DNA from: a virus
Taxonomy: Duplodnaviria > Caudoviricetes
IMG/VR virus record: IMGVR_UViG_3300032074_000002
Span: 7,526 to 71,525 of that record
DNA length: 64,000 bases
Reading direction: 5' to 3' (one strand)
Below, piece after piece: positions 14,529 through 32,083 of the stretch (position 1 is its first letter; each line of letters starts with the position of its first letter). Position numbers and translations under genes: made by a program. The notes beneath the pieces were generated by a model, which saw nothing but the letters and a program-made list of their open reading frames with translations, had not been told where the DNA came from and did not search any database.

Positions 14529-14965
14529 TCGAAGTCAAGCTGACAGTGTACGGCGAAGAGTACGCGATAGTGCGTATTGACGACATGCTTGACAGTCGTA
14601 GCACTGATCTGGCAAACTACTCCATCACGGCCGCGCTGCACGGACTCATCGAAGACAGTCTCTGGCGTCGGGCGTTGCCTGGCATCGAGAAGTACAAGGT
14701 CAACCCGTTGGGCCTCCTGAAGGCCGCGCTAGATCGACTGCCTGAGGAGGCGTTCAGTGGCGAAGCTTTTCCATCAAATCTGGCACGGCGACAGCAGGGA
14801 GCTGTGCAAGAAGTTCAAGCCGGGCCGGGTCAACTGCATCATCACGGACCCTCCGTTCGGGGTGGACAATCAGTCGAACATGGCGGTGACCAAGGAGGGC
14901 AAGGAGTACGCTCGGAAGATTGCGGGCGACGCGAGCCCAGAAGAGGCTTTGACGCTTTTTTCTGA
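14525..14965 (+). CDS. Hypothetical protein; 3' end overlaps the methyltransferase
   Basis: ATGA coupling at 14525; MIEVKLTVYGEE...LLKAALDRL. Confidence 0.6.
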   Translation: MIEVKLTVYGEEYAIVRIDDMLDSRSTDLANYSITAALHGLIEDSLWRRALPGIEKYKVNPLGLLKAALDRLPEEAFSGEAFPSNLARRQQGAVQEVQAGPGQLHHHGPSVRGGQSVEHGGDQGGQGVRSEDCGRREPRRGFDAFF

Positions 14966-15488
14966 GGTCATGGAGGCGCTGCTTCCGGCTACGGCTGACA
15001 ACTGTGACCTCTACATCGTCACCGCTCATCAGGTGCTGGAGCGGTGGCTGGATATGGCGAAGTCCAACGCGATGCTTCGTCATGGCTTCAAGTACAAGGC
15101 AATCCTGGTATGGGAGAAGGACGGCCCAGGCATGGGCGACCTTAACTCTTGGGGTCAGGGGCATGAGTTCATCCTATACCTCAAGAAGGGTAACCGTGTC
15201 AACTCGGACAAGAGGCGCTCGGGTGTCATTCATGTGCCACAGTTGCGGCCGAATCAGCTCATCCATCCCCACGAGAAGCCGACGGCGCTGTTGGAGATGT
15301 TTCTTCGTCAGTCCACTGATCCTGGCGACTTCGTTGTTGATCCCTTTGGAGGATCGGGCAGCCTGGTACGAGCAGCTCGCAACTGCCAACGCAGCGCGGT
15401 GGCTATCGAGTACGACGAGAAGAACTACAAGCTTGCTCTTGACAAGCTTGAGGGCGGCGAAGGGATGGACCTCTTCGGCGCTGCGTAG
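14757..15488 (+). CDS. N6A/N4C DNA methyltransferase (beta class)
   Basis: TDPPFG (motif IV) before HPHEKP and VDPFGGSGS (motif I); GAGGAGG RBS. Confidence 0.92.
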   Translation: MAKLFHQIWHGDSRELCKKFKPGRVNCIITDPPFGVDNQSNMAVTKEGKEYARKIAGDASPEEALTLFSEVMEALLPATADNCDLYIVTAHQVLERWLDMAKSNAMLRHGFKYKAILVWEKDGPGMGDLNSWGQGHEFILYLKKGNRVNSDKRRSGVIHVPQLRPNQLIHPHEKPTALLEMFLRQSTDPGDFVVDPFGGSGSLVRAARNCQRSAVAIEYDEKNYKLALDKLEGGEGMDLFGAA

Positions 15489-15501
15489 AGCGTAAGAACT
15501 T

Positions 15502-15540
15502 AGGCCCCCGTGGCTTTACACTGTAAAGTCACGGGGGCCT
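15502..15540 (+). terminator. 39-bp near-perfect inverted repeat (terminator or DNA dyad site)
   Basis: AGGCCCCCGTGGCTTTACA-C-TGTAAAGTCACGGGGGCCT. Confidence 0.6.
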
Positions 15541-15649
15541 TGCTCTGTGTAGGCCGATAGCGTATCGGCGCGTCGTCTACCATAGAGCCCCGGCCATGTG
15601 CCATTATTGCTCTAACGCCAATCCTGCACGCCCGACAATGGGGGAAAAG

Positions 15650-16042
15650 ATGCACACAGACGAAGATGGAGTGCGCGACATCGGGTCGCCCTTCAAGGTG
15701 TTCAGTCCTTTGGACATGAGCAGCCTGTATGACGTAGACTTCGCACCACAGCCGGTCAGTGTCCGCGACGTTCACCCGTCCGAGCTGGCGGCCAACCCAA
15801 AAGACGAGGAGTCCTCGTCTGCACAGGAGTCTGTCGAGGACTCTACGACGCCGGAGAAGTCGAACTCACCAGATCCCCTGGAGAACCCTGCGCCTGTGGA
15901 GAGGGAGCCAGTACCGACGGGCCTGGAGGATCTAGTTTCATCGAACGAAACGAGTCCTGGCGACGAGACGCCGCCTGCCGCGACGCCCCCATTACCCCCG
16001 GGCAAGACCCCTTCTTCCCGGAGCGCGGTCAAGTCAAACTAG
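15650..16042 (+). CDS. Acidic, disordered hypothetical protein (0-frame partner of WhiB)
   Basis: GGGGA RBS before ATG 15650 (alternative starts 15596, 15638); GAG-rich codons. Confidence 0.6.
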   Translation: MHTDEDGVRDIGSPFKVFSPLDMSSLYDVDFAPQPVSVRDVHPSELAANPKDEESSSAQESVEDSTTPEKSNSPDPLENPAPVEREPVPTGLEDLVSSNETSPGDETPPAATPPLPPGKTPSSRSAVKSN

Positions 16043-16170
16043 CCAACGAGGCTAAGATGAAGTACTGCTTCCCGTGTCCGGTGCGTCGCCAATGTGACGA
16101 GTACCGCCAGGAGACAGACAGTAGATACGGAATCTGGGGGGGTAACCAGTACAATGACTCTGGAGAGTAA
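15796..16170 (+). CDS. whiB: WhiB-family Fe-S transcription factor domain with no canonical start upstream of the domain
   Basis: WRRDAAC-x29-CFPC-PVRRQ-C...YGIWGG; frame open 15733-16170; only ATG (16057) lies inside the domain; missed by track. Confidence 0.85.
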   Translation, partial: PKRRGVLVCTGVCRGLYDAGEVELTRSPGEPCACGEGASTDGPGGSSFIERNESWRRDAACRDAPITPGQDPFFPERGQVKLANEAKMKYCFPCPVRRQCDEYRQETDSRYGIWGGNQYNDSGE

Positions 16171-16173
16171 CCG

Positions 16174-16296
16174 ATGAGCCCGCTTGTAGCGCTCATCATG
16201 CTGACCGTAGTCGAGGCAGCAGCAGTCGCAGTGTGGGCACGGTGTACCCTACGGAGGGTACTTGGCTTTGGCCCTGGACGGAGCTGGTTCGCATGA
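16174..16296 (+). CDS. 40-aa membrane peptide (not in track)
   Basis: GGAG RBS, hydrophobic N-terminus, ATGA overlap with nuclease. Confidence 0.55.
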   Translation: MSPLVALIMLTVVEAAAVAVWARCTLRRVLGFGPGRSWFA

Positions 16297-17480
16297 TTCC
16301 CACCAGCCTGAGCGCCACGGCACTGGACACGGCTACCAAGTGCCTTGCCCGCTACGCCGCCGAGAACATTAACAAGAATCGCACCGGCGGCTCCATGCCA
16401 GCCATGCTGGGCACGTCCTGCCATAATGCCCTAGAGCAGTACGTCAAGGACTGCTACATGGGCGAGGTGCGGACGACGCCTTCGCTGAACCTGCTGCTTG
16501 ACTACTACAAGATGCACTTCATGGTCGAGTTCGACACTGCCGACCCGCTGGGCGATCCTGCCTACGAGGACGGTGTGCAGATGCTGACCAACTGGTACGA
16601 GCGAAGTAACTTCGACGGCTTCGAAGTTGTCTCGGTCGAGGAGAAGACGCCGTACCAGCTCAACGTTCAGGACTCGGCTGGGACGAACTACACCATCCCC
16701 TTTAACTACATCTTCGACCGCCTGGACCGCCTGGACGAGACGACATACAGGGTCGTGGATTACAAGACCTGGCGCGGGCTCCTCCAGCCGGATGATCTGT
16801 TTGGCAAGATTCAGGCTCGCGTGTACGGTCTGATGTGTCAAATCCAGTATCCGCACGCCGAAAAGATCTGGGTCCAGTTCGATCAGCTCCGCGGTGATAC
16901 CGTAGGAGTTGTGTTCACCAAGGCTGACAATGCGAACACCTGGCGCTACATCAAGAAGTGGGCCAGGAAGATCTTGGATACCAAGATCGAGGATGCCGTC
17001 GAGACGATCAACCCTGATTGCAAGTGGTGCATCCGAAAGACGACCTGTACTACACTCAAGAAGAACATCGCGGCGGGCGGGATCGCTGGCCTGCCTGTGA
17101 TCGAGATGATCGACAGACGCGCCATGATCGACCAGCAGATGGAGGCGCTTAAGTGGGCCGCCGCCGAGCTGGAAGAGGCTCTGCTTAAGGCCGCCCAGAA
17201 CGAGGATGTTGAGCATCTGGAGAGCTATAATCACCGAGTCTACTGGACTCGCTCTTCACGGCGTCAGATCGAACGCATGGACATCCTCGAGAAGATCATC
17301 GGTCCACAGCTGATGGAGCGTGTAGGCAAGACCAGTGTCTCCATGACGACGCTCGACAAGCTTCTCAAGGGCAAGGAGTTGACCGCCGAACAGAAGTCTC
17401 AGATCAAAGGACTCGTTACCAATAAGTATGGCGAGCCGTCTCTCAAGACAAAGCCGCTCAGTAAGATTGACGAGAAATGA
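16293..17480 (+). CDS. PD-(D/E)XK RecB/Cas4-like exonuclease
   Basis: IFDRLD...VVDYKT...QARVY; N-terminal Cys plus CKWCIRKTTC cluster; helical C-terminus. Confidence 0.88.
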   Translation: MIPTSLSATALDTATKCLARYAAENINKNRTGGSMPAMLGTSCHNALEQYVKDCYMGEVRTTPSLNLLLDYYKMHFMVEFDTADPLGDPAYEDGVQMLTNWYERSNFDGFEVVSVEEKTPYQLNVQDSAGTNYTIPFNYIFDRLDRLDETTYRVVDYKTWRGLLQPDDLFGKIQARVYGLMCQIQYPHAEKIWVQFDQLRGDTVGVVFTKADNANTWRYIKKWARKILDTKIEDAVETINPDCKWCIRKTTCTTLKKNIAAGGIAGLPVIEMIDRRAMIDQQMEALKWAAAELEEALLKAAQNEDVEHLESYNHRVYWTRSSRRQIERMDILEKIIGPQLMERVGKTSVSMTTLDKLLKGKELTAEQKSQIKGLVTNKYGEPSLKTKPLSKIDEK

Positions 17481-22045: not shown

Positions 22046-24631
22046 TCAGCGAACCTCCTCGTAAGGGATCGTCATGTCGCCCATCTCGGCTGTCCCGACA
22101 CCAGACTTGGGCGACCAGCCGAGATTACCAAGACTGATCTGAAACAGCCTGCCAAACGGCGTTCGCAGCCAGTAGGTTTCCTGTGCTCGGAACAAATCCT
22201 CCATTGCCTGGCGAAACGTACTGGGACGCTCGACCTTACGAACCTCGCACTTGAGCGAGCCAGCGTACCCCAAGTCGTCGCCGTAGTCAGTGTGCCGACC
22301 CCGGCCGATGATCGTGTACGTAGCGGACTCTTGCTCGTAAGTCGAGTCGTCGCCTGTCACGTTCGGTAGTTTAACGCTCAGGTCAGTATCCACTGGATTG
22401 ATGATCCAGTAACTAACGAGGTCAACGTCCACGCGCCGATCCTCAGTCAGTTCTTGATCGGTGTCGTCGCGGTAGTAGCCCACTGTTGACTCTAACAGTG
22501 CGCCAGATCGAGTGGCAACCTGGGTCACCGAGTAGATATACTCGTGGCCAGCCACTAACATGTAGTCCTTATACTGTCTTGTGTTCACGTCGCTGATCTG
22601 AGTCAGTAGATCCCAGGTACCCGATACGTCAGTCAGGTCCATGCGATAGACCTTCCACGCCGCAAAGGCGTCATCTGGCAAAGCCTGCGTAAGGTCGATC
22701 AGTACGTACCCGAGTTCTTCGGCGCCAGAGGCGTCGATGTCATACTGAATCGAGCTAGGTGCGACGTAGCTCGTACTGAACGCAAAAGTCGCCGTACCAC
22801 TCAGGCCAGTACTGTCGGTGACAGTGACGGTCCATGAGTAATTGTGCTGGTTACCAAGAACGACGGCGGAGGGTGTCGCGGTGAAAACTGCGCCAGTTAC
22901 CGTCGTGGTCCATGCAACTTCGGCGGTACTGGTATCCGTAACGGTGACTACGGCCTTCGCTTGTGTTCCACCCGACGGAGTGGTGACCCCCCAACTAAAG
23001 GTGGGCGCACCATTGGTCACCGTCCCACCATTGGGCGGTGTCTGTAGCGTGACGACCGGGACATCTGCGAGCGTAAAGATCGAGTAGGACGTATACGCGC
23101 TGGCGGTGTCGCCCTTGTCCCAGACTCGTACCTTCCAGCGTAGCTGCTGGTTCTTAAGGCTTACGTCGATTGGAACTTGAATACTCTTGACGGCGCTGGT
23201 AACCTTGCCGGAGTCGTAGATCGACGTACCGTTGAGGTTGTCTTCGATGACGACCTGATATGCAGTCTGCGCATCGAGAGAGCCAGCCGAGTCCCCGAAG
23301 CTCCAGGTAAAGGTGATGTTGGGTGTGTACTGCCACGTCTTGCCCGTGGACGGGGTAACGATCGTAGCAGATGGAGTGTGAGATTCCGTCCAGCTGACAG
23401 TCGTAGACCACGGAGTAACATATCCCGTGGTATTGTTCTTAACCTGAGCCCGAGCATACCAAGTACCAACCTTGAGATACTTGGTAGTGTCTTGGAGAGT
23501 GTACTGATTATTCGAGGATGCTGCACTCGGGTTGAGTGTAAGCGTTGTAATACCAGAAGCGAATGTACTGCTCTGACTCAGCTGTGCGGTGATCGTCCGA
23601 TCAGAGGCGATACCCTGGGCGGTAACAATAACCTTGGCTACTGCGTCAGTATATTTCGAGCCTGCGGCTGGCGTAATGATGCTAGGCGTCCCCGCCAACA
23701 TCGTAAAGTTGATCGAGCCTGTCCATGGCGAGTCGCCGACACCATTGCTCGCTCGAACTCTGGCGTAGTACTTGACGCCAGGAGTGAGGCCAGTAAGGTT
23801 TGCGGGTGAGCCGTCATAAGTGATAGTCTGAAGATTTGACGTAAAGCTAGAGTTAGTCGCAAGCTGTAAGTCGTAGCCGTTGATAGCAGAGCCACCGTCA
23901 GTGCCAGGCGCACTCCAGCTAACCGTTGCTGTTGTCTGATTGACAGCACTCGAGGCTAGTCCAGTTGGGACGCCCGGAGCTGTAGCACCAGTCGTAAAGC
24001 TACTCGTGTAGGCCCAGGCCGAGTCTCCTACACTGTTGGTTTCCTTGGCGCGAAACTGATAGGTGGTTGCTGGTGTTAGTCCAGTAGCGGTATGAGAACC
24101 AGACCCGTGCCAACCGACACCTGGGCTTGTCCAGTTTGACCCCGGTCCAGAAATCTGTGAGTAATAGTCGATGATCGACGAGCCGTTAGAAGAGCCAGCC
24201 GTAACAGTGACAGTAGCACTCGTGCTAGTGACGCTAGAAGCCTTGACGGTAGGAGCACCGGGAACACTCGCTGGCCTCTTGGGGAGCGACCAGTAGTAAT
24301 CGACGTAGGGTGTACCGCCGAGATACTGACCAGAAATCGCGCCGTAAAAGTGGTAGGTAGGACCACCACCATAGCTCAGGCCCTGACTAAGAATTGTCGT
24401 GCGTCCGACATACTGGCTTACGACGCCGCTACCGACATTGAAGGTGAAGTTAAAGGTAGCAGATCGCGAGCCCGAAATAGTCAGTGTCTGGTTGTCGTTG
24501 AAGCCCCAGTTGTTTGACTCGACATACCAGTCAGCATAGACGTTAACCTGAGTAGTACCTGAACTGATTGCATCTGTGAAGACGTTGACGCCAACCAGTT
24601 CATGCTGCTGCTCGCCACCCCATACGGTCAT
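22046..24631 (-). CDS. Minor tail protein with fibronectin type III repeats (distal-tail-like)
   Basis: FN3 motifs (LTPATTYQFRAK, VSWSAP...INGYDLQ, LTPGVKYYARVRASN); follows tape measure. Confidence 0.85.
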   Translation of the reverse strand: MTVWGGEQQHELVGVNVFTDAISSGTTQVNVYADWYVESNNWGFNDNQTLTISGSRSATFNFTFNVGSGVVSQYVGRTTILSQGLSYGGGPTYHFYGAISGQYLGGTPYVDYYWSLPKRPASVPGAPTVKASSVTSTSATVTVTAGSSNGSSIIDYYSQISGPGSNWTSPGVGWHGSGSHTATGLTPATTYQFRAKETNSVGDSAWAYTSSFTTGATAPGVPTGLASSAVNQTTATVSWSAPGTDGGSAINGYDLQLATNSSFTSNLQTITYDGSPANLTGLTPGVKYYARVRASNGVGDSPWTGSINFTMLAGTPSIITPAAGSKYTDAVAKVIVTAQGIASDRTITAQLSQSSTFASGITTLTLNPSAASSNNQYTLQDTTKYLKVGTWYARAQVKNNTTGYVTPWSTTVSWTESHTPSATIVTPSTGKTWQYTPNITFTWSFGDSAGSLDAQTAYQVVIEDNLNGTSIYDSGKVTSAVKSIQVPIDVSLKNQQLRWKVRVWDKGDTASAYTSYSIFTLADVPVVTLQTPPNGGTVTNGAPTFSWGVTTPSGGTQAKAVVTVTDTSTAEVAWTTTVTGAVFTATPSAVVLGNQHNYSWTVTVTDSTGLSGTATFAFSTSYVAPSSIQYDIDASGAEELGYVLIDLTQALPDDAFAAWKVYRMDLTDVSGTWDLLTQISDVNTRQYKDYMLVAGHEYIYSVTQVATRSGALLESTVGYYRDDTDQELTEDRRVDVDLVSYWIINPVDTDLSVKLPNVTGDDSTYEQESATYTIIGRGRHTDYGDDLGYAGSLKCEVRKVERPSTFRQAMEDLFRAQETYWLRTPFGRLFQISLGNLGWSPKSGVGTAEMGDMTIPYEEVR

Positions 24632-27600
24632 CGCCTACTGCCTCCAGCCATGTCCCGCAGGTTCGTCAGGAACGTTTCTGCGTCGCGTCCGTTGTTAATA
24701 CTCGGGAACAAAAGATCACCAGTGATGTTGATAGTCACCGTGTCGCCGTTGTAGTTGTAGACTACCGGCTGGGAAGCCTGAACGCTACCATTGAGCCTCG
24801 CGTCCAACTTCACGAGGTCGATGTGATCCAGAACGTTGACCAGCTTCTCGAACGATGCAGTCTGTGCGGTAGTCAGAACCCTCTCGGCTCCACCGCTCAT
24901 GTTGATCCCGACGGTGCCACTCGGCCACAGCCCGCCCTGGTCGTACCAGTGGTTGGCCGCCCAGAATCGTTGAGCGCCGATGGGGTCACCATAGCGCCCG
25001 TGGATGTATCGCAGACCGTACTGCGCCTGGAGAACCGGGTCAGAAGTTTTATGCCCGCCGACGCCAGCCCAGGTGCTGTTGAGGAACTGGAACAGACCAT
25101 AGGCGGTACTGGTCGGGTTCTGGGCGTAGGGGTTGAAGCCAGACTCGTGACTGATGATCCAGGCTAGGGCGTTCCACTCGGCGCCACTTCCCCACCCGTA
25201 CTGGTTGGCTACCATCCGAACAGCCGCAGCCGCACCAGCCTTGGCCAGTGAGCCGGTAACTCCCTGACTCAGGTCAGGCAGGTTGACGTTCGCAAGTGCA
25301 TTGGCGTTATCAGCTGCACGCTTCGCAATCTCTGCCTTGTAATCAGCGTAACCACCGCCGCCGGGAGCTACCCAGCCGGTCGCAGCGTGCTTAATCCAAT
25401 TCCAGATGTTGTTAGCACCGTCACGAGCCATATCACCCAGAGAGGCGTCAATGCCAGTGTTACCGTGATTACTTGTGTACTTCCGCTCCTTGGAGACGTA
25501 ATCCGTAATCAGGTTGATGATCCCACCGGCAGGCGACATCGAGGTAAGGAATCTGGCGATGGGGTTTGTGTTAATCCAGTCAAGCGTACGACTACCAAGA
25601 CCAACAATGCCACCCGCTGCGTGGCTCTGTATTCCGCCACCCACGGATGCTAGCAGGAACTGCAGCACGGCGTTGGGACCGCCACTCCGGGCCGCAGCGT
25701 TGGCAGCGTGGACCCAATCGGGTCCGAGCGCCTTCGTGAACTCGGGGCGCAGGATCGCCTCGCCGCCGGACAGCTCTAGGAGTCCGCCGGTGGGAGAAAC
25801 GAACTTGTGAACGTCACGACCGGGCGTATATCCAGGCATGACGCCACCTGCGGCGAAACCCAGCTTGAAGGGCGCGAGATCCTTGCCGCCCCAGATGTTG
25901 TTAATCCAGTTCCACAGATTACGCAGGCCATTGTTCCATACGAAGTCCACGACCCACTGGACGGGCTTGCCAAGTGCCGACTTCAGCCCATCCCAGATCT
26001 TTCCGATGCCGTCAACTGCAGTCTTAAAGCCGTCATGGACGGCACTAATGACGTCACTGAACGTCTTGAAGACCGGGTGCAGCAGATGGTCCCACACCCA
26101 CTTGAAGCCAGCTGCCAGGCCGTTCCAAACGGAACCAATCGCGTCGAAGATCGGCTTCAGAATAGTCTTGTACAGCCAGTTAGCAACATCCTTAATTGCA
26201 TTCCAGACGGGATGCAGGACGTTGTCCCATGCCCACTTGATATCGTTAAGAAGTGACTGCCAGAGCGATCCGATGTAAGTGAAAACAGGCTTAAGAATAT
26301 TGGTCCAGAGCCAGTTTGCCGCTCCAGCAACTGCATTCCAGACTGGCTTAAGAACATGCTCCCAAAACCACTTGAAAGCACTTGTTAGCGCATTCCACCC
26401 ATCCTCGATCCATCCGAGGACGGGCTTGATCGCAACCTTCCAGAGCCAACTGAAAAGATCACCAATCCAGCCGAGGACGGTCTTGATGGGCGCCCACAGG
26501 AGGCCGAGCGCTAGCTTAACAACGGCGACAATCTGACCCCAGATAGCACCAAGAACTTCCTTGATGCCCTTCCACATCTTACCCCAGTTACCCGTGAACA
26601 AGCCGATGAAGATGTCCAGAATGCCGAGGATAAACTGCACAAAGTTATGGAACGAAGTCTTGATGAAGTCAAGCACAGGCTTGATGATATTTACAAGAAG
26701 GTCGAATGCAGCCTTGATTGCAACAACGAACACACCAGCGAAGAACTCAATAACCGGCTTGATGATCTTAATGATGTTGCGGATTGCATCAAGGAAAGGT
26801 CCGATGCGCTCCTTGAGTCCACTGAACAGGTCGCCCAGGGAAGACCAGATACTCTTAAAGAAGTCACCAAGCTGGCCTAGGATGTTCTTGACATCCGGGC
26901 CAATGAGACTCCATAGGAACTTACCAATGTCCCAGATCGTGCTCCACCAGCTGGTGAGAACACTCCACGCCTTGCTGAGAATTCCCTCGAAGTCGATACC
27001 GCCGAAGATCTTACTGAGTGTACCGCCAAGGTCTACACCATCGAACAGGTGCGTGAACGGCTTGCCAAGCTTCTTGAGGAACGGCCAGGCAGTTCCGTCC
27101 CACCACTTGACAAAGCCCTTCCACATGTCCTTGAAGGGCCCGAACATGTCGAAGCCCCCGAAGGCTCCTCCCATCTTCTTTTGAAGGTCCTTCGTCCAAG
27201 CGTCGATCTGTGCGGACTGATCGCCGGGGCCACCCTCGCGCCCGACCATGCCCGTGCCGCCGACGTCTGCAAAGTTACCACCTGCAGCGTCTTGGAAGTT
27301 CTGCATGGTCGGGGACAGCTTCGGTGCCTTGGCTTGCTTGAGACCAGCGGCAGCTGCGTTGACGTCGGACATGGCCTGATTCATGTCCTGAATCGCCTGA
27401 GTTACCGCATCATAAGAGTTCTTAAGGTCACTCAGCTTCTGGTTAGAAGCGTCATAACTGACCTGGACGGCATCAACCTTCTTCTGGGCAGCATCCACGA
27501 CGGCCTGCTGCCTAGCGACAGCATCGTTGGCCGCGTTGTACTTATCGGTTAGGTCGCTGATACCCTGCTTGTCCTGGAGCACTCCGGCCAAGATCTGGTC

Positions 27601-30600
27601 GAATGGCAACTCCTTCATGGAGTTTGCCGCCTGATCAATCTGTCGAGTCAGACCGTCGAACTGTAAACTCTTCTGCAGGTCGAGGATGTCGGCCTGCTTC
27701 TGCAGGGCATCCATCTGCTTTTGCAGGGCACCGACAGAGTCACTAGACGATCCGAGCGCGCCCCGCTGCGCCTTGAGTGCCTTGATCTGGTCATCATACT
27801 TGCCAAGGATCTCGCTACCAGCTCCCATTGAGCGGGCATTGTTTCGGTTACCCATGACAGTTTCGATCTGCCCCTGCAGAGCTGCCGCCTCGTCGGCGAT
27901 GGACGAGAAGGCTCCCTTGCCGGTCTGCTGCAGCTGGTCCATCTGCAACTGAAGTCGCTTCTGTGCCATTTGATTGGCAAAGATCGCATCATCGAACGCT
28001 TGCATCCCCTTGATGGGGGTATTGGTCAGCGTGCTCAGGTGATCCTTAAGGGCAGTAATTTGATTCTGATACCCCTGGGCAACATTCTGCAAGTCACTCA
28101 GTTTGTTCTTCTGAGCATCGAGCGTCTTGTTCGCAGCATCCAGCGAGCGCTGCCAACCATCCACGACGCCCTGCTGCGCCTTGATAGCATTGTCGTACTG
28201 ATCCTGAATGTTCTTAAGATTAGACAGCTGAGCAGCCAGGTTAATGTAACTGGAAATTAGTGCGGAGCTCGCGCCCGCCTTACTGAGGTCTGCGACCTCG
28301 TTCGCCGTCTTGATCGAGTCATAACCCTTGGCGAGGTCGAGTGCAGCATTCTTGAACTGCTTGATCGAGGCGTAAGCCTGGTCGATCGGACCCTTAATTG
28401 AGGTCAACCGCCCGAACTGAGCAGTAACGACGTTCATACCGTTTGTGACGTTCTCGACCAGTGAGGGCGAGTGATGCGCAAACGGGTTAAGGTAGCTGAA
28501 CCAGTGGTAAACTGCGAGGGCTGCAGACCTGACCATGTTGACCACGGCCACGATCGCGTTCTGCACACCCTTGGGCAGCATGTCGAACGCCTGAACGATA
28601 GCGCCCGCCATGTTCTGGAAGAACCTGACGATGTTGTCCCAGATGCCCTTGAGCTTGTCGCGGAAGATGAACAGCAGGGCGACGACAGCCAGGGCCGCGA
28701 GAACCCACGGGTTCGTAAACGCCTTCATGAGCATCGGCCCACCGGCCGAGAACAGTCGGACGAGCAGTCCCCAGCCGCCCTTGGCGATCCCGACCATTCC
28801 AGACCATGTGAACTTCCAGAGGCCCTGGAGACCCATGGACACGGCAGCCCAGACCGTCTCCAGAACTCGTCCACCGGCTACTGTCGCCATGGTGAGGAGG
28901 CGCATCCCGACAACCTGGATTGCGACCAGTGCCGCCTGGAGTCCGCGCCAGATAGCACCGACGACAGAGGCGGTAGCGAGCAGGATACCTTCAAAGGCTG
29001 CCATGCCAGCTGCAGCGGCACCCCGCAGCAGTGCGCCGCCCGCCACCTGAATGGTAACAAGTAGAGCCTGCAAGGCGCGCCAGATCCCGGCGATGCCAGC
29101 ACCAGCCTCGGCGGTGATGACCTCGAGGGCGACCATCGCTGCGCGCCAGACGATTCCGAGTGCGCGGGCTCCCATCACCATGACGTTCTCGATCATCGTC
29201 ATGATGAAGGCCCAAGCGCGAGCCAGACCCGAACCAATCTCGACAGTAATGACTTCGAGCGTCGTACCGATGATAGTCCAGATCGCAGCGAGCGTCGGAC
29301 CGAAGACTGCAGTTAGCCGTCCGATGCCCTGTAGCAACAGCAACCAGAGCTTGCCAATCTTAGATGTTGCAATAATATCAGCTAGGCCAACAAAGAGTAC
29401 GGAAAAAGCTCCGTAAATGAGCGATGTAACGCTAGTCAAGCCGACAAGTAAACTGGTGCGAACCGCTGCGATCATCCCGCCCATGGCGAGAACGGCGATA
29501 CGACTGACATACCCCCAGGCCGCTGCGAACGGGCTCAGCATGACAGCGCTGACTCGAATAAAGGCTGCAGTCAGCAGTGACAGCCCACCAATAACTGCGT
29601 CAAAAGTGAACGCAGCAATGGCAGATACCACATCCCACAGTAGAGTAGCTACTGAGATGAGCGGCTTAGTCAAAAAGATAAGGGCAGGGCCAACATAGCC
29701 CAGCAGAACCTTCAGTGCGCCCATGTAGCGAACGATGGGTCCAACGGCCGCCAATAGCAGCGCGAAGACAATAATATCTTTCTGGATATTAGGCGACAGA
29801 TTATTAAAGCTCTTGGCGATGCTTGTAATCGCCATGCCCAGGCCAGTGATCGCCGGCAGCAGTGGCTGGATTGCGTCAGCCAGAGTGTTCTCCAGCATGA
29901 CCTTCATCTTAGCAAACTTGTTTGGCGAAGAGTCTAGAACAGTGTTAAGTTCCTGCTGGTAGATCTTCATGACCTTGGTACGGGCGGCTTGCGCGTCCAT
30001 ACCGTCACCAACAGCCTGCAGTGCCTTGTAGTAGTAGCTGCTGTGGTTGGCCAGTGCAGCCATGAGGACATCGAACTTGTTAAGCTGCAGTCGTGAGGCA
30101 ATCGCCGACGAGACAACCTGCTTCTGTGCGTCGCTCAGATTCTCGAAGTGCTTACTCAGAATGAGCAGCCGACCGCTAGCATCGGTGGACTTCCAACTCA
30201 CGTCAGCCATGTTGATACCCATGGCGTGCAGAAGGTCCTGAGCATCCTTGGTCGGAGCCAGGAGGCGCGAGATGATCGTCTTGAGCGCGTTACCCGCCGT
30301 GCTAGCTGAACCCGCCGCAGGCACGAGCGCAGCCGTCATGGCAGCCAGGTGAGCCACGTCGACACCCGCCGCTCTAGCCACGCCGGAGGATCGGGCCATG
30401 GACTGGATGAGATCGCCCATGGTCGTGCCGGTCTGGTTCTCGATCGCGTTGAGCTGCGCAATCGTGTATTGCAGCTGATCGGCAGACTGACCGTACTGCG
30501 CCTGGATTGCAATGAGTGCCTTTGTTGCATCGGCGGCACTGAGGTTACCCAGGACCATTGCGTCCATGGTGATCTTGGTCTGCTTGGCCAGTGCTAGACC

Positions 30601-31050
30601 AGAACTACCAGCCGAGGCCCACGCGGCGCCGATGTTGATAACGTCAGATCGGGCGACACCGTAGATCTCTGAAAGCGCCTCGAAAGAGCGACCGAGAGCA
30701 TCAGTCTCAGACTTGATCTGCTTCATCGGCATGGTGCCGTCGCCGTAGACCTTGACAAGTTCTGTCATAGCCTTGGCGTTATCGTTTGCAAACTTCACGC
30801 CAGCAGCTGTTGCAGCTATAATAGGCAGAGTGAAGTTGTAAGTCATCTGACGGCCGGCCCACTGCATCTGCGAACCGGACTTGATAAGACTGCGACTCAA
30901 TCCATCGAGTCCAGCAGCCGCACCAGCGGTGCGAGAAGCTCCTGCGGCCTGTGCCGCGGAAAGCTTGGAGATGTCGCCCTGAACCTGCTGAATCGCCTGT
31001 CTGGCCTGATTGGCCATGACCTGAATGCGGATCTGCATTACGCCGTTCAA
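24628..31050 (-). CDS. Tape measure protein with C-terminal lytic transglycosylase domain
   Basis: 2140 aa, helical, Trp-periodic repeats; IISHESGFNPYAQNPTSTAYGLFQFL...GLRYIHGRYG. Confidence 0.95.
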   Translation of the reverse strand: MNGVMQIRIQVMANQARQAIQQVQGDISKLSAAQAAGASRTAGAAAGLDGLSRSLIKSGSQMQWAGRQMTYNFTLPIIAATAAGVKFANDNAKAMTELVKVYGDGTMPMKQIKSETDALGRSFEALSEIYGVARSDVINIGAAWASAGSSGLALAKQTKITMDAMVLGNLSAADATKALIAIQAQYGQSADQLQYTIAQLNAIENQTGTTMGDLIQSMARSSGVARAAGVDVAHLAAMTAALVPAAGSASTAGNALKTIISRLLAPTKDAQDLLHAMGINMADVSWKSTDASGRLLILSKHFENLSDAQKQVVSSAIASRLQLNKFDVLMAALANHSSYYYKALQAVGDGMDAQAARTKVMKIYQQELNTVLDSSPNKFAKMKVMLENTLADAIQPLLPAITGLGMAITSIAKSFNNLSPNIQKDIIVFALLLAAVGPIVRYMGALKVLLGYVGPALIFLTKPLISVATLLWDVVSAIAAFTFDAVIGGLSLLTAAFIRVSAVMLSPFAAAWGYVSRIAVLAMGGMIAAVRTSLLVGLTSVTSLIYGAFSVLFVGLADIIATSKIGKLWLLLLQGIGRLTAVFGPTLAAIWTIIGTTLEVITVEIGSGLARAWAFIMTMIENVMVMGARALGIVWRAAMVALEVITAEAGAGIAGIWRALQALLVTIQVAGGALLRGAAAAGMAAFEGILLATASVVGAIWRGLQAALVAIQVVGMRLLTMATVAGGRVLETVWAAVSMGLQGLWKFTWSGMVGIAKGGWGLLVRLFSAGGPMLMKAFTNPWVLAALAVVALLFIFRDKLKGIWDNIVRFFQNMAGAIVQAFDMLPKGVQNAIVAVVNMVRSAALAVYHWFSYLNPFAHHSPSLVENVTNGMNVVTAQFGRLTSIKGPIDQAYASIKQFKNAALDLAKGYDSIKTANEVADLSKAGASSALISSYINLAAQLSNLKNIQDQYDNAIKAQQGVVDGWQRSLDAANKTLDAQKNKLSDLQNVAQGYQNQITALKDHLSTLTNTPIKGMQAFDDAIFANQMAQKRLQLQMDQLQQTGKGAFSSIADEAAALQGQIETVMGNRNNARSMGAGSEILGKYDDQIKALKAQRGALGSSSDSVGALQKQMDALQKQADILDLQKSLQFDGLTRQIDQAANSMKELPFDQILAGVLQDKQGISDLTDKYNAANDAVARQQAVVDAAQKKVDAVQVSYDASNQKLSDLKNSYDAVTQAIQDMNQAMSDVNAAAAGLKQAKAPKLSPTMQNFQDAAGGNFADVGGTGMVGREGGPGDQSAQIDAWTKDLQKKMGGAFGGFDMFGPFKDMWKGFVKWWDGTAWPFLKKLGKPFTHLFDGVDLGGTLSKIFGGIDFEGILSKAWSVLTSWWSTIWDIGKFLWSLIGPDVKNILGQLGDFFKSIWSSLGDLFSGLKERIGPFLDAIRNIIKIIKPVIEFFAGVFVVAIKAAFDLLVNIIKPVLDFIKTSFHNFVQFILGILDIFIGLFTGNWGKMWKGIKEVLGAIWGQIVAVVKLALGLLWAPIKTVLGWIGDLFSWLWKVAIKPVLGWIEDGWNALTSAFKWFWEHVLKPVWNAVAGAANWLWTNILKPVFTYIGSLWQSLLNDIKWAWDNVLHPVWNAIKDVANWLYKTILKPIFDAIGSVWNGLAAGFKWVWDHLLHPVFKTFSDVISAVHDGFKTAVDGIGKIWDGLKSALGKPVQWVVDFVWNNGLRNLWNWINNIWGGKDLAPFKLGFAAGGVMPGYTPGRDVHKFVSPTGGLLELSGGEAILRPEFTKALGPDWVHAANAAARSGGPNAVLQFLLASVGGGIQSHAAGGIVGLGSRTLDWINTNPIARFLTSMSPAGGIINLITDYVSKERKYTSNHGNTGIDASLGDMARDGANNIWNWIKHAATGWVAPGGGGYADYKAEIAKRAADNANALANVNLPDLSQGVTGSLAKAGAAAAVRMVANQYGWGSGAEWNALAWIISHESGFNPYAQNPTSTAYGLFQFLNSTWAGVGGHKTSDPVLQAQYGLRYIHGRYGDPIGAQRFWAANHWYDQGGLWPSGTVGINMSGGAERVLTTAQTASFEKLVNVLDHIDLVKLDARLNGSVQASQPVVYNYNGDTVTINITGDLLFPSINNGRDAETFLTNLRDMAGGSRR

Positions 31051-31170: not shown

Positions 31171-31470
31171 CTACCGGCCTCTTCGACCGCCTGCTACGCC
31201 ACTGTTTCGGCGCTTCGTCTCCTGCTCTCTGGCCTTCGCTTCTCTCTCACGCTGGGCATTGCGCTCGTTGAAGATGTAGCGAATCTCCTCGATGAACTGA
31301 GGATGCTGGTCGTGAATCCCCCCAGCCATTGGGAGGTGCGCCCACCGCATATTATCCAGCAGATTGAAGTATCTGATAGATGTCGGAGGATTCTCTACCG
31401 GCTCGCCCTCAACGAACTGCTTGACCTTACGCCTGAAAGGCGGCGTCCTTCTCGTTGCGCTTGACGACAT
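31171..31470 (-). CDS. Tail assembly chaperone, downstream frame (GT-like)
   Basis: Lies between TAC and tape measure; overlaps TAC by 44 nt; no SD before its ATG. Confidence 0.75.
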   Translation of the reverse strand: MSSSATRRTPPFRRKVKQFVEGEPVENPPTSIRYFNLLDNMRWAHLPMAGGIHDQHPQFIEEIRYIFNERNAQREREAKAREQETKRRNSGVAGGRRGR

Positions 31471-31981
31471 CAGCGCGCAGGTCGTGGAGACGCTGGATCT
31501 CCTCGTCGATCTGCTCGACCGTCATGTCGGCCTGCAGCCACGGGTTCGCCTTGCGGATCGCGTCCTCCAGCTCCTCCACGATCTTCGGATTCGCCTTGTC
31601 GAGCCACCTGTGCAGCTCATCACCGGGGGTGCCGTTGTTGGAAAACGGCGCGGGCTCCCAGCCCTGACCGTCCTTGCGTCGCCGCATGAGCGACCAGCCG
31701 GTGACTGAGGACTCGATCAGCGCCTGGCGCTCACCCGCCGGGTCAGCCTTGATCCGCATGTCCTGCGAATTGCGGTTGACGTGGATGTCGCGGTTCGTCT
31801 TCTGCTGGAACTTGCTCTTCTGACCCTCGTTCATCACCTGGAAGAAGATCTGCTGCTTGCCGTCGGGCAGCGTGTAGACCTGCATCTGCTCGAAGCCGAA
31901 GTAGTCCTCGAACTGCTCGTCAGAGCTGGGCAGGACGGGCGCGTCGCCAGCAGGAGCGGGGATGGTACCGGGGAGAGTCAC
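31427..31981 (-). CDS. Tail assembly chaperone (G-like)
   Basis: Follows tail tube gene; GTG with AAAGG RBS. Confidence 0.8.
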   Translation of the reverse strand: MTLPGTIPAPAGDAPVLPSSDEQFEDYFGFEQMQVYTLPDGKQQIFFQVMNEGQKSKFQQKTNRDIHVNRNSQDMRIKADPAGERQALIESSVTGWSLMRRRKDGQGWEPAPFSNNGTPGDELHRWLDKANPKIVEELEDAIRKANPWLQADMTVEQIDEEIQRLHDLRADVVKRNEKDAAFQA

Positions 31982-32083
31982 AGTCGGTGACCTTTCTGGT
32001 CGATAGTGTATCCGTGTGCGGACGCACTGAAGGGGCGGCACCCAGGTTACGGGTGCCGCCCCTCCTTGTCCAGCGTGCGGGTG

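Follow-up and report, generated by a model that had tools for sequence, protein, structure and literature searches.

Programmed -1 ribosomal frameshifting is a textbook feature of the tail assembly chaperones G and GT of phage lambda and of other tailed phages, where it was reportedly described by Levin in 1993 and by Xu, Hendrix and Duda in 2004. A -1 shift at an X_XXY_YYZ heptamer is also made in the OrfA/OrfAB genes of the IS3 family (IS911, IS150) and in the Escherichia coli dnaX gene (tau/gamma), several of these sites being helped by an upstream Shine-Dalgarno (SD)-like element and a downstream hairpin. Among regulators of the WhiB-like (Wbl) family that are carried by phages, WhiBTM4 (TM4 gp49) is reported to inhibit host whiB2. 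Certain phage Wbls were shown to bind region 4 of sigma-A (PMC13013590), and a passage of PMC11751726 cites Xu, Hendrix and Duda (2004) for the tail chaperone frameshift. We analysed a stretch of 64,000 nucleotides (nt), hereafter the window, which is part of a 71.5-kb IMG/VR viral contig (IMGVR_UViG_3300032074_000002, about 93% complete, 59.6% G+C) of an uncultivated soil phage. It carries a WhiB locus whose product, judging from the sequence and its relatives, is very probably made by a programmed -1 ribosomal frameshift at the heptamer C_CCA_AAA, giving a fusion protein of 173 residues.

Like the G/GT pair, this locus has its heptamer near the end of a short upstream frame, with two proteins sharing an N-terminus, and the position is kept across divergent phages. 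Unlike G/GT, the shifted product is a regulator whose functional domain is encoded entirely in the shifted frame, and no sign of selection is seen on the tail that is read in the 0 frame. The likeness to the IS3 elements concerns access to the domain: as with their catalytic domain, the WhiB domain can be reached only by the shift, and the enrichment of anti-SD pairing upstream of the heptamer in the relatives of this phage recalls both dnaX and IS3. There is, however, no homology to either; the heptamer is C_CCA_AAA or C_CCU_UUA rather than A_AAA_AAG, and the stimulators proposed here are candidates only, none of them structurally conserved. As a protein, the window WhiB shares with other phage Wbls (WhiBTM4 and those in PMC13013590) the four cluster cysteines, the W, FF and W of the aromatic patch and the G[IV]WGG turn. 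It differs from the small phage Wbls with ordinary starts, such as Fruitloop gp55 and prophiGD90-1, in being start-less, in its leader, which comes from another frame, in its additional four-Cys module and in the lack of a basic tail.

The first-pass annotation of the window had noticed a WhiB core without a start codon in the -1 frame of the open reading frame (ORF) at 15650-16042, and this proved right. The domain is complete, matching PF02467 over positions 1-60 of the 65 in the profile (E 2.2e-13; 50.9 bits, cut-off 23.6), and the -1-frame product is the only PF02467 match of the whole 71.5-kb genome (51.7 bits when the genome was scanned). Open over 15733-16167, the -1 frame is closed upstream by a TGA at 15730-15732. 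Between this stop and an ATG at 16057, which lies inside the domain, it holds no ATG, GTG or TTG at all, and a protein begun at 16057 would be a 37-residue stub lacking the first cluster cysteine, the tryptophan AP1 of the aromatic patch and the FF pair. The sequence CCCAAAA was found exactly where it had been placed, at 15796-15802, and stands in the frame of the ATG at 15650 in the register C_CCA_AAA. The features of the locus are collected in Table 1; the stretch read as the 0-frame tail also covers the linker and reaches 28 codons into the WhiB domain.

Table 1. Features of the WhiB locus, in coordinates of the window
Feature	Position	Strand	Remarks
0-frame leader, 51 codons through the heptamer	15650..15802	+	ATG 15650; ATG 15638 or 15596 also possible; acidic
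Slippery heptamer C_CCA_AAA	15796..15802	+	P-site CCA->CCC and A-site AAA->AAA re-pairing; next -1 codon AGA
Candidate downstream stimulator hairpin, 10+4 bp	15808..15844	+	Starts 5 nt after the heptamer
-1-frame linker with four invariant Cys (C-T-G-V-C ... C-A-C-G-E-G), putative metal-binding module	15803..15957	+	Alignments A1, A2
WhiB (Wbl) domain including stop codon	15958..16170	+	PF02467; PHROG 472
0-frame tail of the unshifted product, 80 codons, Ser/Pro/Glu-rich, stop 16040-42	15803..16042	+	
GGAGG, 10 nt later ATC in the WhiB frame (alternative non-canonical start)	15925..15942	+	GGAGG 15925-29, ATC 15940

We propose that the upstream ORF and the WhiB frame are a single recoded gene. 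Translation would start in the 0 frame, at ATG 15650 or 15638, and at the heptamer a fraction of the ribosomes would slip back by one base, the Pro-tRNA moving from CCA to CCC and the Lys-tRNA from AAA to AAA. The slipped ribosomes would read on in the -1 frame by way of AGA, producing the junction ...ANPKRRGVLVC and a fusion in which an acidic leader of 51 residues is followed by the four-Cys linker and a complete WhiB-like [4Fe-4S] domain. Without the slip, the product would be a protein of 130 residues, in which this leader is followed by a Ser/Pro/Glu-rich tail that is apparently unconstrained. It is the slip itself, together with its efficiency and any stimulator, that we infer here.

A fusion of acidic leader, Cys-rich linker and WhiB by a -1 shift had been suggested from the window alone, and it is strongly supported by the heptamers of 17 out of 17 related lineages, by the invariance of the four linker cysteines and by a switch in the phase of substitutions. 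Searching with the -1 product (tblastn), we found 241 phage records, 106 of which match at least 80% of the query, linker included; the hosts of the matched phages are Gordonia, Tsukamurella and Rhodococcus. The 17 lineages that we examined comprise 13 GenBank phages (Orchid, TIN4, ReqiDocB7, Diabla, Reynauld, GTE7, Gmala1, Woes, Demosthenes, Perlina, Mbo2, PokyPuppy and Chelms) and 4 IMG/VR loci (L019, L021, L023 and L025). Every one of them has an in-register X_XXY_YYZ heptamer upstream of the four-Cys module and WhiB. The conservation of CCCAAAA, which had been put forward as a check, holds in 10 relatives, where it precedes the first Cys codon of C.G[IV]C by 15 nt, and the other 7 have CCCTTTA, 9 nt before that codon. 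A pattern scan for G_GGA_AAA, as a possible third heptamer class, gave with the spacing of this family just two chance matches, neither of them with a WhiB. The window CCCAAAA stands 24 nt before it, owing to a 9-nt insertion (codons RGV) unique to its lineage. In Orchid and Gmala1 a TGA lies directly before the CCC in the WhiB frame, which bars any entry to this frame ahead of the heptamer, and in L023 the -1 ORF extends over 152 codons without any canonical start. The synteny common to the relatives runs from a methylase or RusA gene through small ORFs and the WhiB locus to a Cas4-like exonuclease. Their leaders are weakly conserved, with ...P[IVF]...DF[RA]P motifs that the window also has (16 leaders aligned).

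A tree built from the -1 products groups the CCCTTTA lineages in a single clade (support 100/97), and the heptamer type has thus changed once. The window is a long isolated branch of this tree, with at most 45% identity to any relative: the two-frame arrangement has outlasted very deep divergence. A megablast search of 15400-16500 against phage records returned no match, hence no close sequenced relative. Related-locus searches with the window -1 product, with protein P0003 and with alignment A1 gave no relatives or no usable pattern, and a word-based search for homologous proteins gave nothing. A HMMER scan of 1.84 billion representatives yielded 2610 WhiB matches, and among the 13 examined, which were those reaching furthest into the linker, none had the C.G[IV]C...C.CGEG module in one frame behind a start. 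This lack of an unshifted fused form is weak evidence, because gene callers need a start codon.

We then asked of the relatives which frame is under selection, by counting substitutions at 0-frame codon positions 1/2/3, summed over four independent related pairs. In the 150 nt upstream of the heptamer the counts are 65/61/102, with the peak at the 0-frame third position (Chi square test against an even spread, p ~1e-3). From the heptamer to the 0-frame stop they are 67/104/71 (p ~6e-3), and after the 0-frame stop 62/136/55 (p ~4e-11), the peak being in both zones at the -1-frame third position. The pattern is sharpest in the closest pair, Diabla and Chelms, with 2/3/17, 1/8/2 and 2/12/0 for the same three zones. 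This shift in substitution phase at the heptamer indicates that the coding frame under selection changes there. A variant contig of the soil run X3 keeps the heptamer, and each of its first three downstream differences (15825, 15834 and 15840) changes the amino acid in the 0 frame but is silent in the -1 frame. Locus anatomy, its conservation and the frame of selection are what these data show. The mean pairwise identity of short three-frame translations was also tried as a measure and was set aside as too noisy. As a separate observation, a contig of the soil run X2 matches the flanks 15508-15590 and 15942-16060 and has 358 unrelated letters in place of the 351 between them; in the region of the leader and Cys linker, related phages thus differ far more from each other than they do in the WhiB domain or in the upstream control region.

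The codons at the site are rare ones. AAA accounts for 5.5% of Lys codons in the window genome, AGA for 5.3% of Arg codons and CCA for 12.9% of Pro codons, and the arginine following the slip is an AGR codon in every lineage. Such a choice of rare codons at the heptamer fits selection on its nucleotides. The 0-frame tail shows no sign of selection, its open length falling within that of synonymous shuffles of the -1 frame (P = 0.41; likewise in nearly all lineages). We do not claim dual coding for it, since the shuffles explain its open length.

A hairpin downstream of the heptamer and a mutually exclusive alternative stem had been described in the first-pass annotation. Both are present as described (GTCCTCG 15811-15817 with CGAGGAC 15835-15841 and an inner ACAG/CTGT; competing 7-bp stem GACGAGG 15803-15809 with CCTCGTC 15813-15819), but neither the sequence nor the position of the hairpin is conserved in the relatives. 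With RNAfold the main stem extends to 10+4 bp at -18.7 kcal/mol, behind a 5-nt spacer, and this 37-nt hairpin ranks in the top 0.9% of same-length windows of the 64 kb; it is built partly from the lineage-private 9-nt insertion. In the relatives, anti-SD pairing of the 20 nt that precede the heptamer has a mean of -8.75 kcal/mol versus a background of -4.19 kcal/mol (Mann-Whitney test, p = 2e-8, the lineages not being independent). In most of the lineages L003-L025 an SD-like GGAGG, GGTGG or GGGGG stands 0-15 nt before the heptamer and may act there as an upstream stimulator of the frameshift; the X3 variant contig has CTGGAGG directly upstream of the heptamer. It may be that in the window the downstream hairpin stands in for the upstream SD-like stimulator of the relatives.

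Several observations weigh against a programmed frameshift in the window. The heptamer alone occurs at chance frequency in the 64 kb (2 found versus 3.1 expected), and the 73-nt region of the hairpin is no more stable than its dinucleotide shuffles (z = -0.02); with a heptamer at chance frequency and an unexceptional fold, the window sequence alone proves nothing. No conserved downstream RNA structure came to light, the relatives folding differently (z from -2.0 to +1.5), and the upstream SD-like signal is weak in the window itself (-5.8 kcal/mol). The switch of heptamer type is a single evolutionary event, with no repeated covariation. The data on the frame of selection come from the relatives, the lineage of the window contributing three substitutions in one variant contig. 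The significance of the heptamer comes from its register, its position, the choice of rare codons and its conservation in the relatives.

To these points is added a good GGAGG site before an in-frame ATC, from which WhiB might be made separately, as a protein of 76 residues, the upstream ORF being a separate gene and the heptamer incidental. The site exists as the first-pass annotation had it: the GGAGG pairs with the anti-SD sequence at -9.3 kcal/mol, the ATC is in frame six codons before the AP1 tryptophan, and a protein started there would hold the whole Pfam domain. ATC is, however, an exceptional start codon in bacterial initiation. An SD-like site before a near-cognate codon at this place is found in the window only, among 18 lineages, and 11 of the 18 have no start or near-cognate codon within the 20 codons upstream of the tryptophan. 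Initiation at the ATC cannot account for the conserved upstream coding, as it leaves unexplained the conserved linker cysteines in a start-less frame, the conserved heptamer of rare codons and the switch in substitution phase. We therefore regard it as improbable that this is how WhiB is made, although a short WhiB may be a second product, alongside the frameshift.

Still less probable is slippage of the RNA polymerase on the A or T run, by which some transcripts would gain a base. The site does hold a homopolymer run, and one added base would bring about the same change of frame. Bacterial transcriptional-slippage sites, however, need longer runs, of roughly 7 or more, and those here are of only 4 A (CCCAAAA) or 3 T (CCCTTTA); moreover, what is conserved is the two-triplet X_XXY_YYZ register, CCC included, which is relevant to the tandem re-pairing of tRNAs and not to polymerase slippage. 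Finally, although the window is a single metagenomic contig with a run of four A's and has no close relative by megablast, we give almost no credence to a one-base assembly error (15796-15802 being in truth CCCAAAAA or CCCAAA) or to a WhiB pseudogene, as the same two-frame layout lies at the same place in 17 independently sequenced relatives, 13 of them from isolated phages, purifying selection acts on each side of the break in its own frame with all eight cysteines and the Wbl motifs intact, and the check for an indel found none nearby, either in a depth-17 contig of run X1 that is identical to the window over 15500-16300 (and is possibly its own source) or in the X3 variant with its retained heptamer.

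The WhiB domain that the programmed frameshift would give access to has the core W-x5-C...FFP...CFPC-x5-C...GIWGG, with the segments AAC...CFPCPVRRQC...GIWGG. The four cluster cysteines and the GIWGG turn are present, and the same columns are invariant in alignment A2. The aromatic patch AP1-AP4 could be matched by sequence position to the W before the first cysteine (ESW), the FF of DPFFPE and the W of GIWGG. In Mycobacterium tuberculosis WhiB1 the patch consists of W3, F17, F18 and W60 (PMC13013590); cluster-ligating cysteines, G[V/I]WGG and aromatic patch are conserved Wbl features, and the patch is needed for binding to sigma-A region 4 (PMC13013590). By analogy, the -1 product may act through region 4 of the host primary sigma factor, which would give it a regulatory role. 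The stop eight residues after GIWGG, and with it the absence of a basic tail, had been noted early on, and is confirmed: the window WhiB ends in NQYNDSGE, without any K or R, and most relatives have K/R-rich tails of 5-10 residues. The window WhiB might for this reason, as the first-pass annotation proposed, be a competitor at SigA region 4. The basic C-terminal tail that it lacks serves several Wbls for DNA contact; it is a trait of subfamilies and no defining mark of the family.

Upstream of the WhiB domain, the residues P1, R3, C9, G11, C13, C32, C34, G35 and G37 of the -1 product are invariant, at an overall identity of 39-46% (15 sequences), and a Phe is largely conserved in the linker just 5' of the domain. 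This four-Cys linker is a putative extra metal-binding module. AlphaFold2, run on the -1 product with the 15-sequence alignment, gave a predicted local distance difference test score (pLDDT) below 50 for the linker, hence no fold for the four-Cys module, and of 70-80, a moderate confidence, for the WhiB domain. A search of the ESM Atlas with the linker gave no usable match, and PHROGs and Pfam assigned no family to the 0-frame product or the leader.

One might speculate, though tentatively, that the frameshift is itself a regulatory device, fixing the ratio of the full regulator to a competing leader-only protein, or tuning it to the translation state of the host. The four-Cys module could then be a further sensor, for metal or redox state, such as no Wbl is known to have; the hairpin would have replaced the SD-like stimulator, and the loss of the basic tail might have left a pure binder of sigma-A region 4.

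Annotation has missed this arrangement. No joined coding sequence or frameshift is annotated in the GenBank/RefSeq records of the related phages examined. WhiB is unannotated in Orchid, TIN4, GTE7, PokyPuppy and Chelms, is annotated as a 33-residue stub in Diabla and Woes, and is given an internal start, with loss of essential residues, in RobinSparkles, ReqiDocB7, Perlina, Reynauld, Gmala1, Demosthenes and Mbo2. PHROG 11832, a family with 33 positions and no known function, aligns with residues 94-116 of the -1 product; its source appears to be the 33-residue stubs as which WhiB was mis-annotated in phages of the Woes and Monty types. A full-text literature search returned no description of a frameshifted WhiB; in a survey of phage WhiB and Lsr2 regulators (PMC8612146), neither "frameshift" nor "start codon" occurs. 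As far as we have found, -1 frameshifting for a regulator of the WhiB family has not been described previously, and is a new use of a known recoding mechanism. If our reading is true, a sizeable group of actinophages is mis-annotated (the 106 records with the high tblastn coverage), and surveys and phylogenies of phage Wbls miss or truncate a subfamily together with its four-Cys module. The locus would also be a simple system, open to test, in which recoding governs a phage regulator that acts on the host sigma factor, in hosts related to the mycobacteria. The window, as a deep divergent member with another candidate stimulator and a non-basic C-terminus, helps to separate the essential from the lineage-specific traits.

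The phage has a tail chaperone pair of its own, at 31171-32041 on the minus strand, upstream of a gene for a 2140-aa tape measure protein (24628-31050, also minus). The G-like ORF ends in ...KDAAFQA* and is continued by a T-like part in the +1/-2 frame; the overlap holds no X_XXY_YYZ heptamer. The chaperone frameshift thus seems to be of a different type from that of WhiB. We had considered it as a calibrator; with its +1/-2 offset and no canonical heptamer it is uninformative on -1 slippage.

The WhiB locus lies between a DNA methylase gene (14757-15488, PF01555) and a PD-(D/E)XK (Cas4-like) exonuclease gene (16233-17480). Behind the methylase gene there is a G+C-rich inverted repeat at 15503-15537 (GGCCCCCGTG...CACGGGGGCC), and just 5' of the leader ORF an 18-bp palindrome at 15555-15572; the two suggest a separate, regulated start for the WhiB/exonuclease unit. 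Between WhiB and the exonuclease gene, a hydrophobic ORF of 40 codons (MSPLVALIMLTVVEAAAVAVW...) at 16174-16296 overlaps the longest reading of the exonuclease, from GTG 16233, whose true start may be later.

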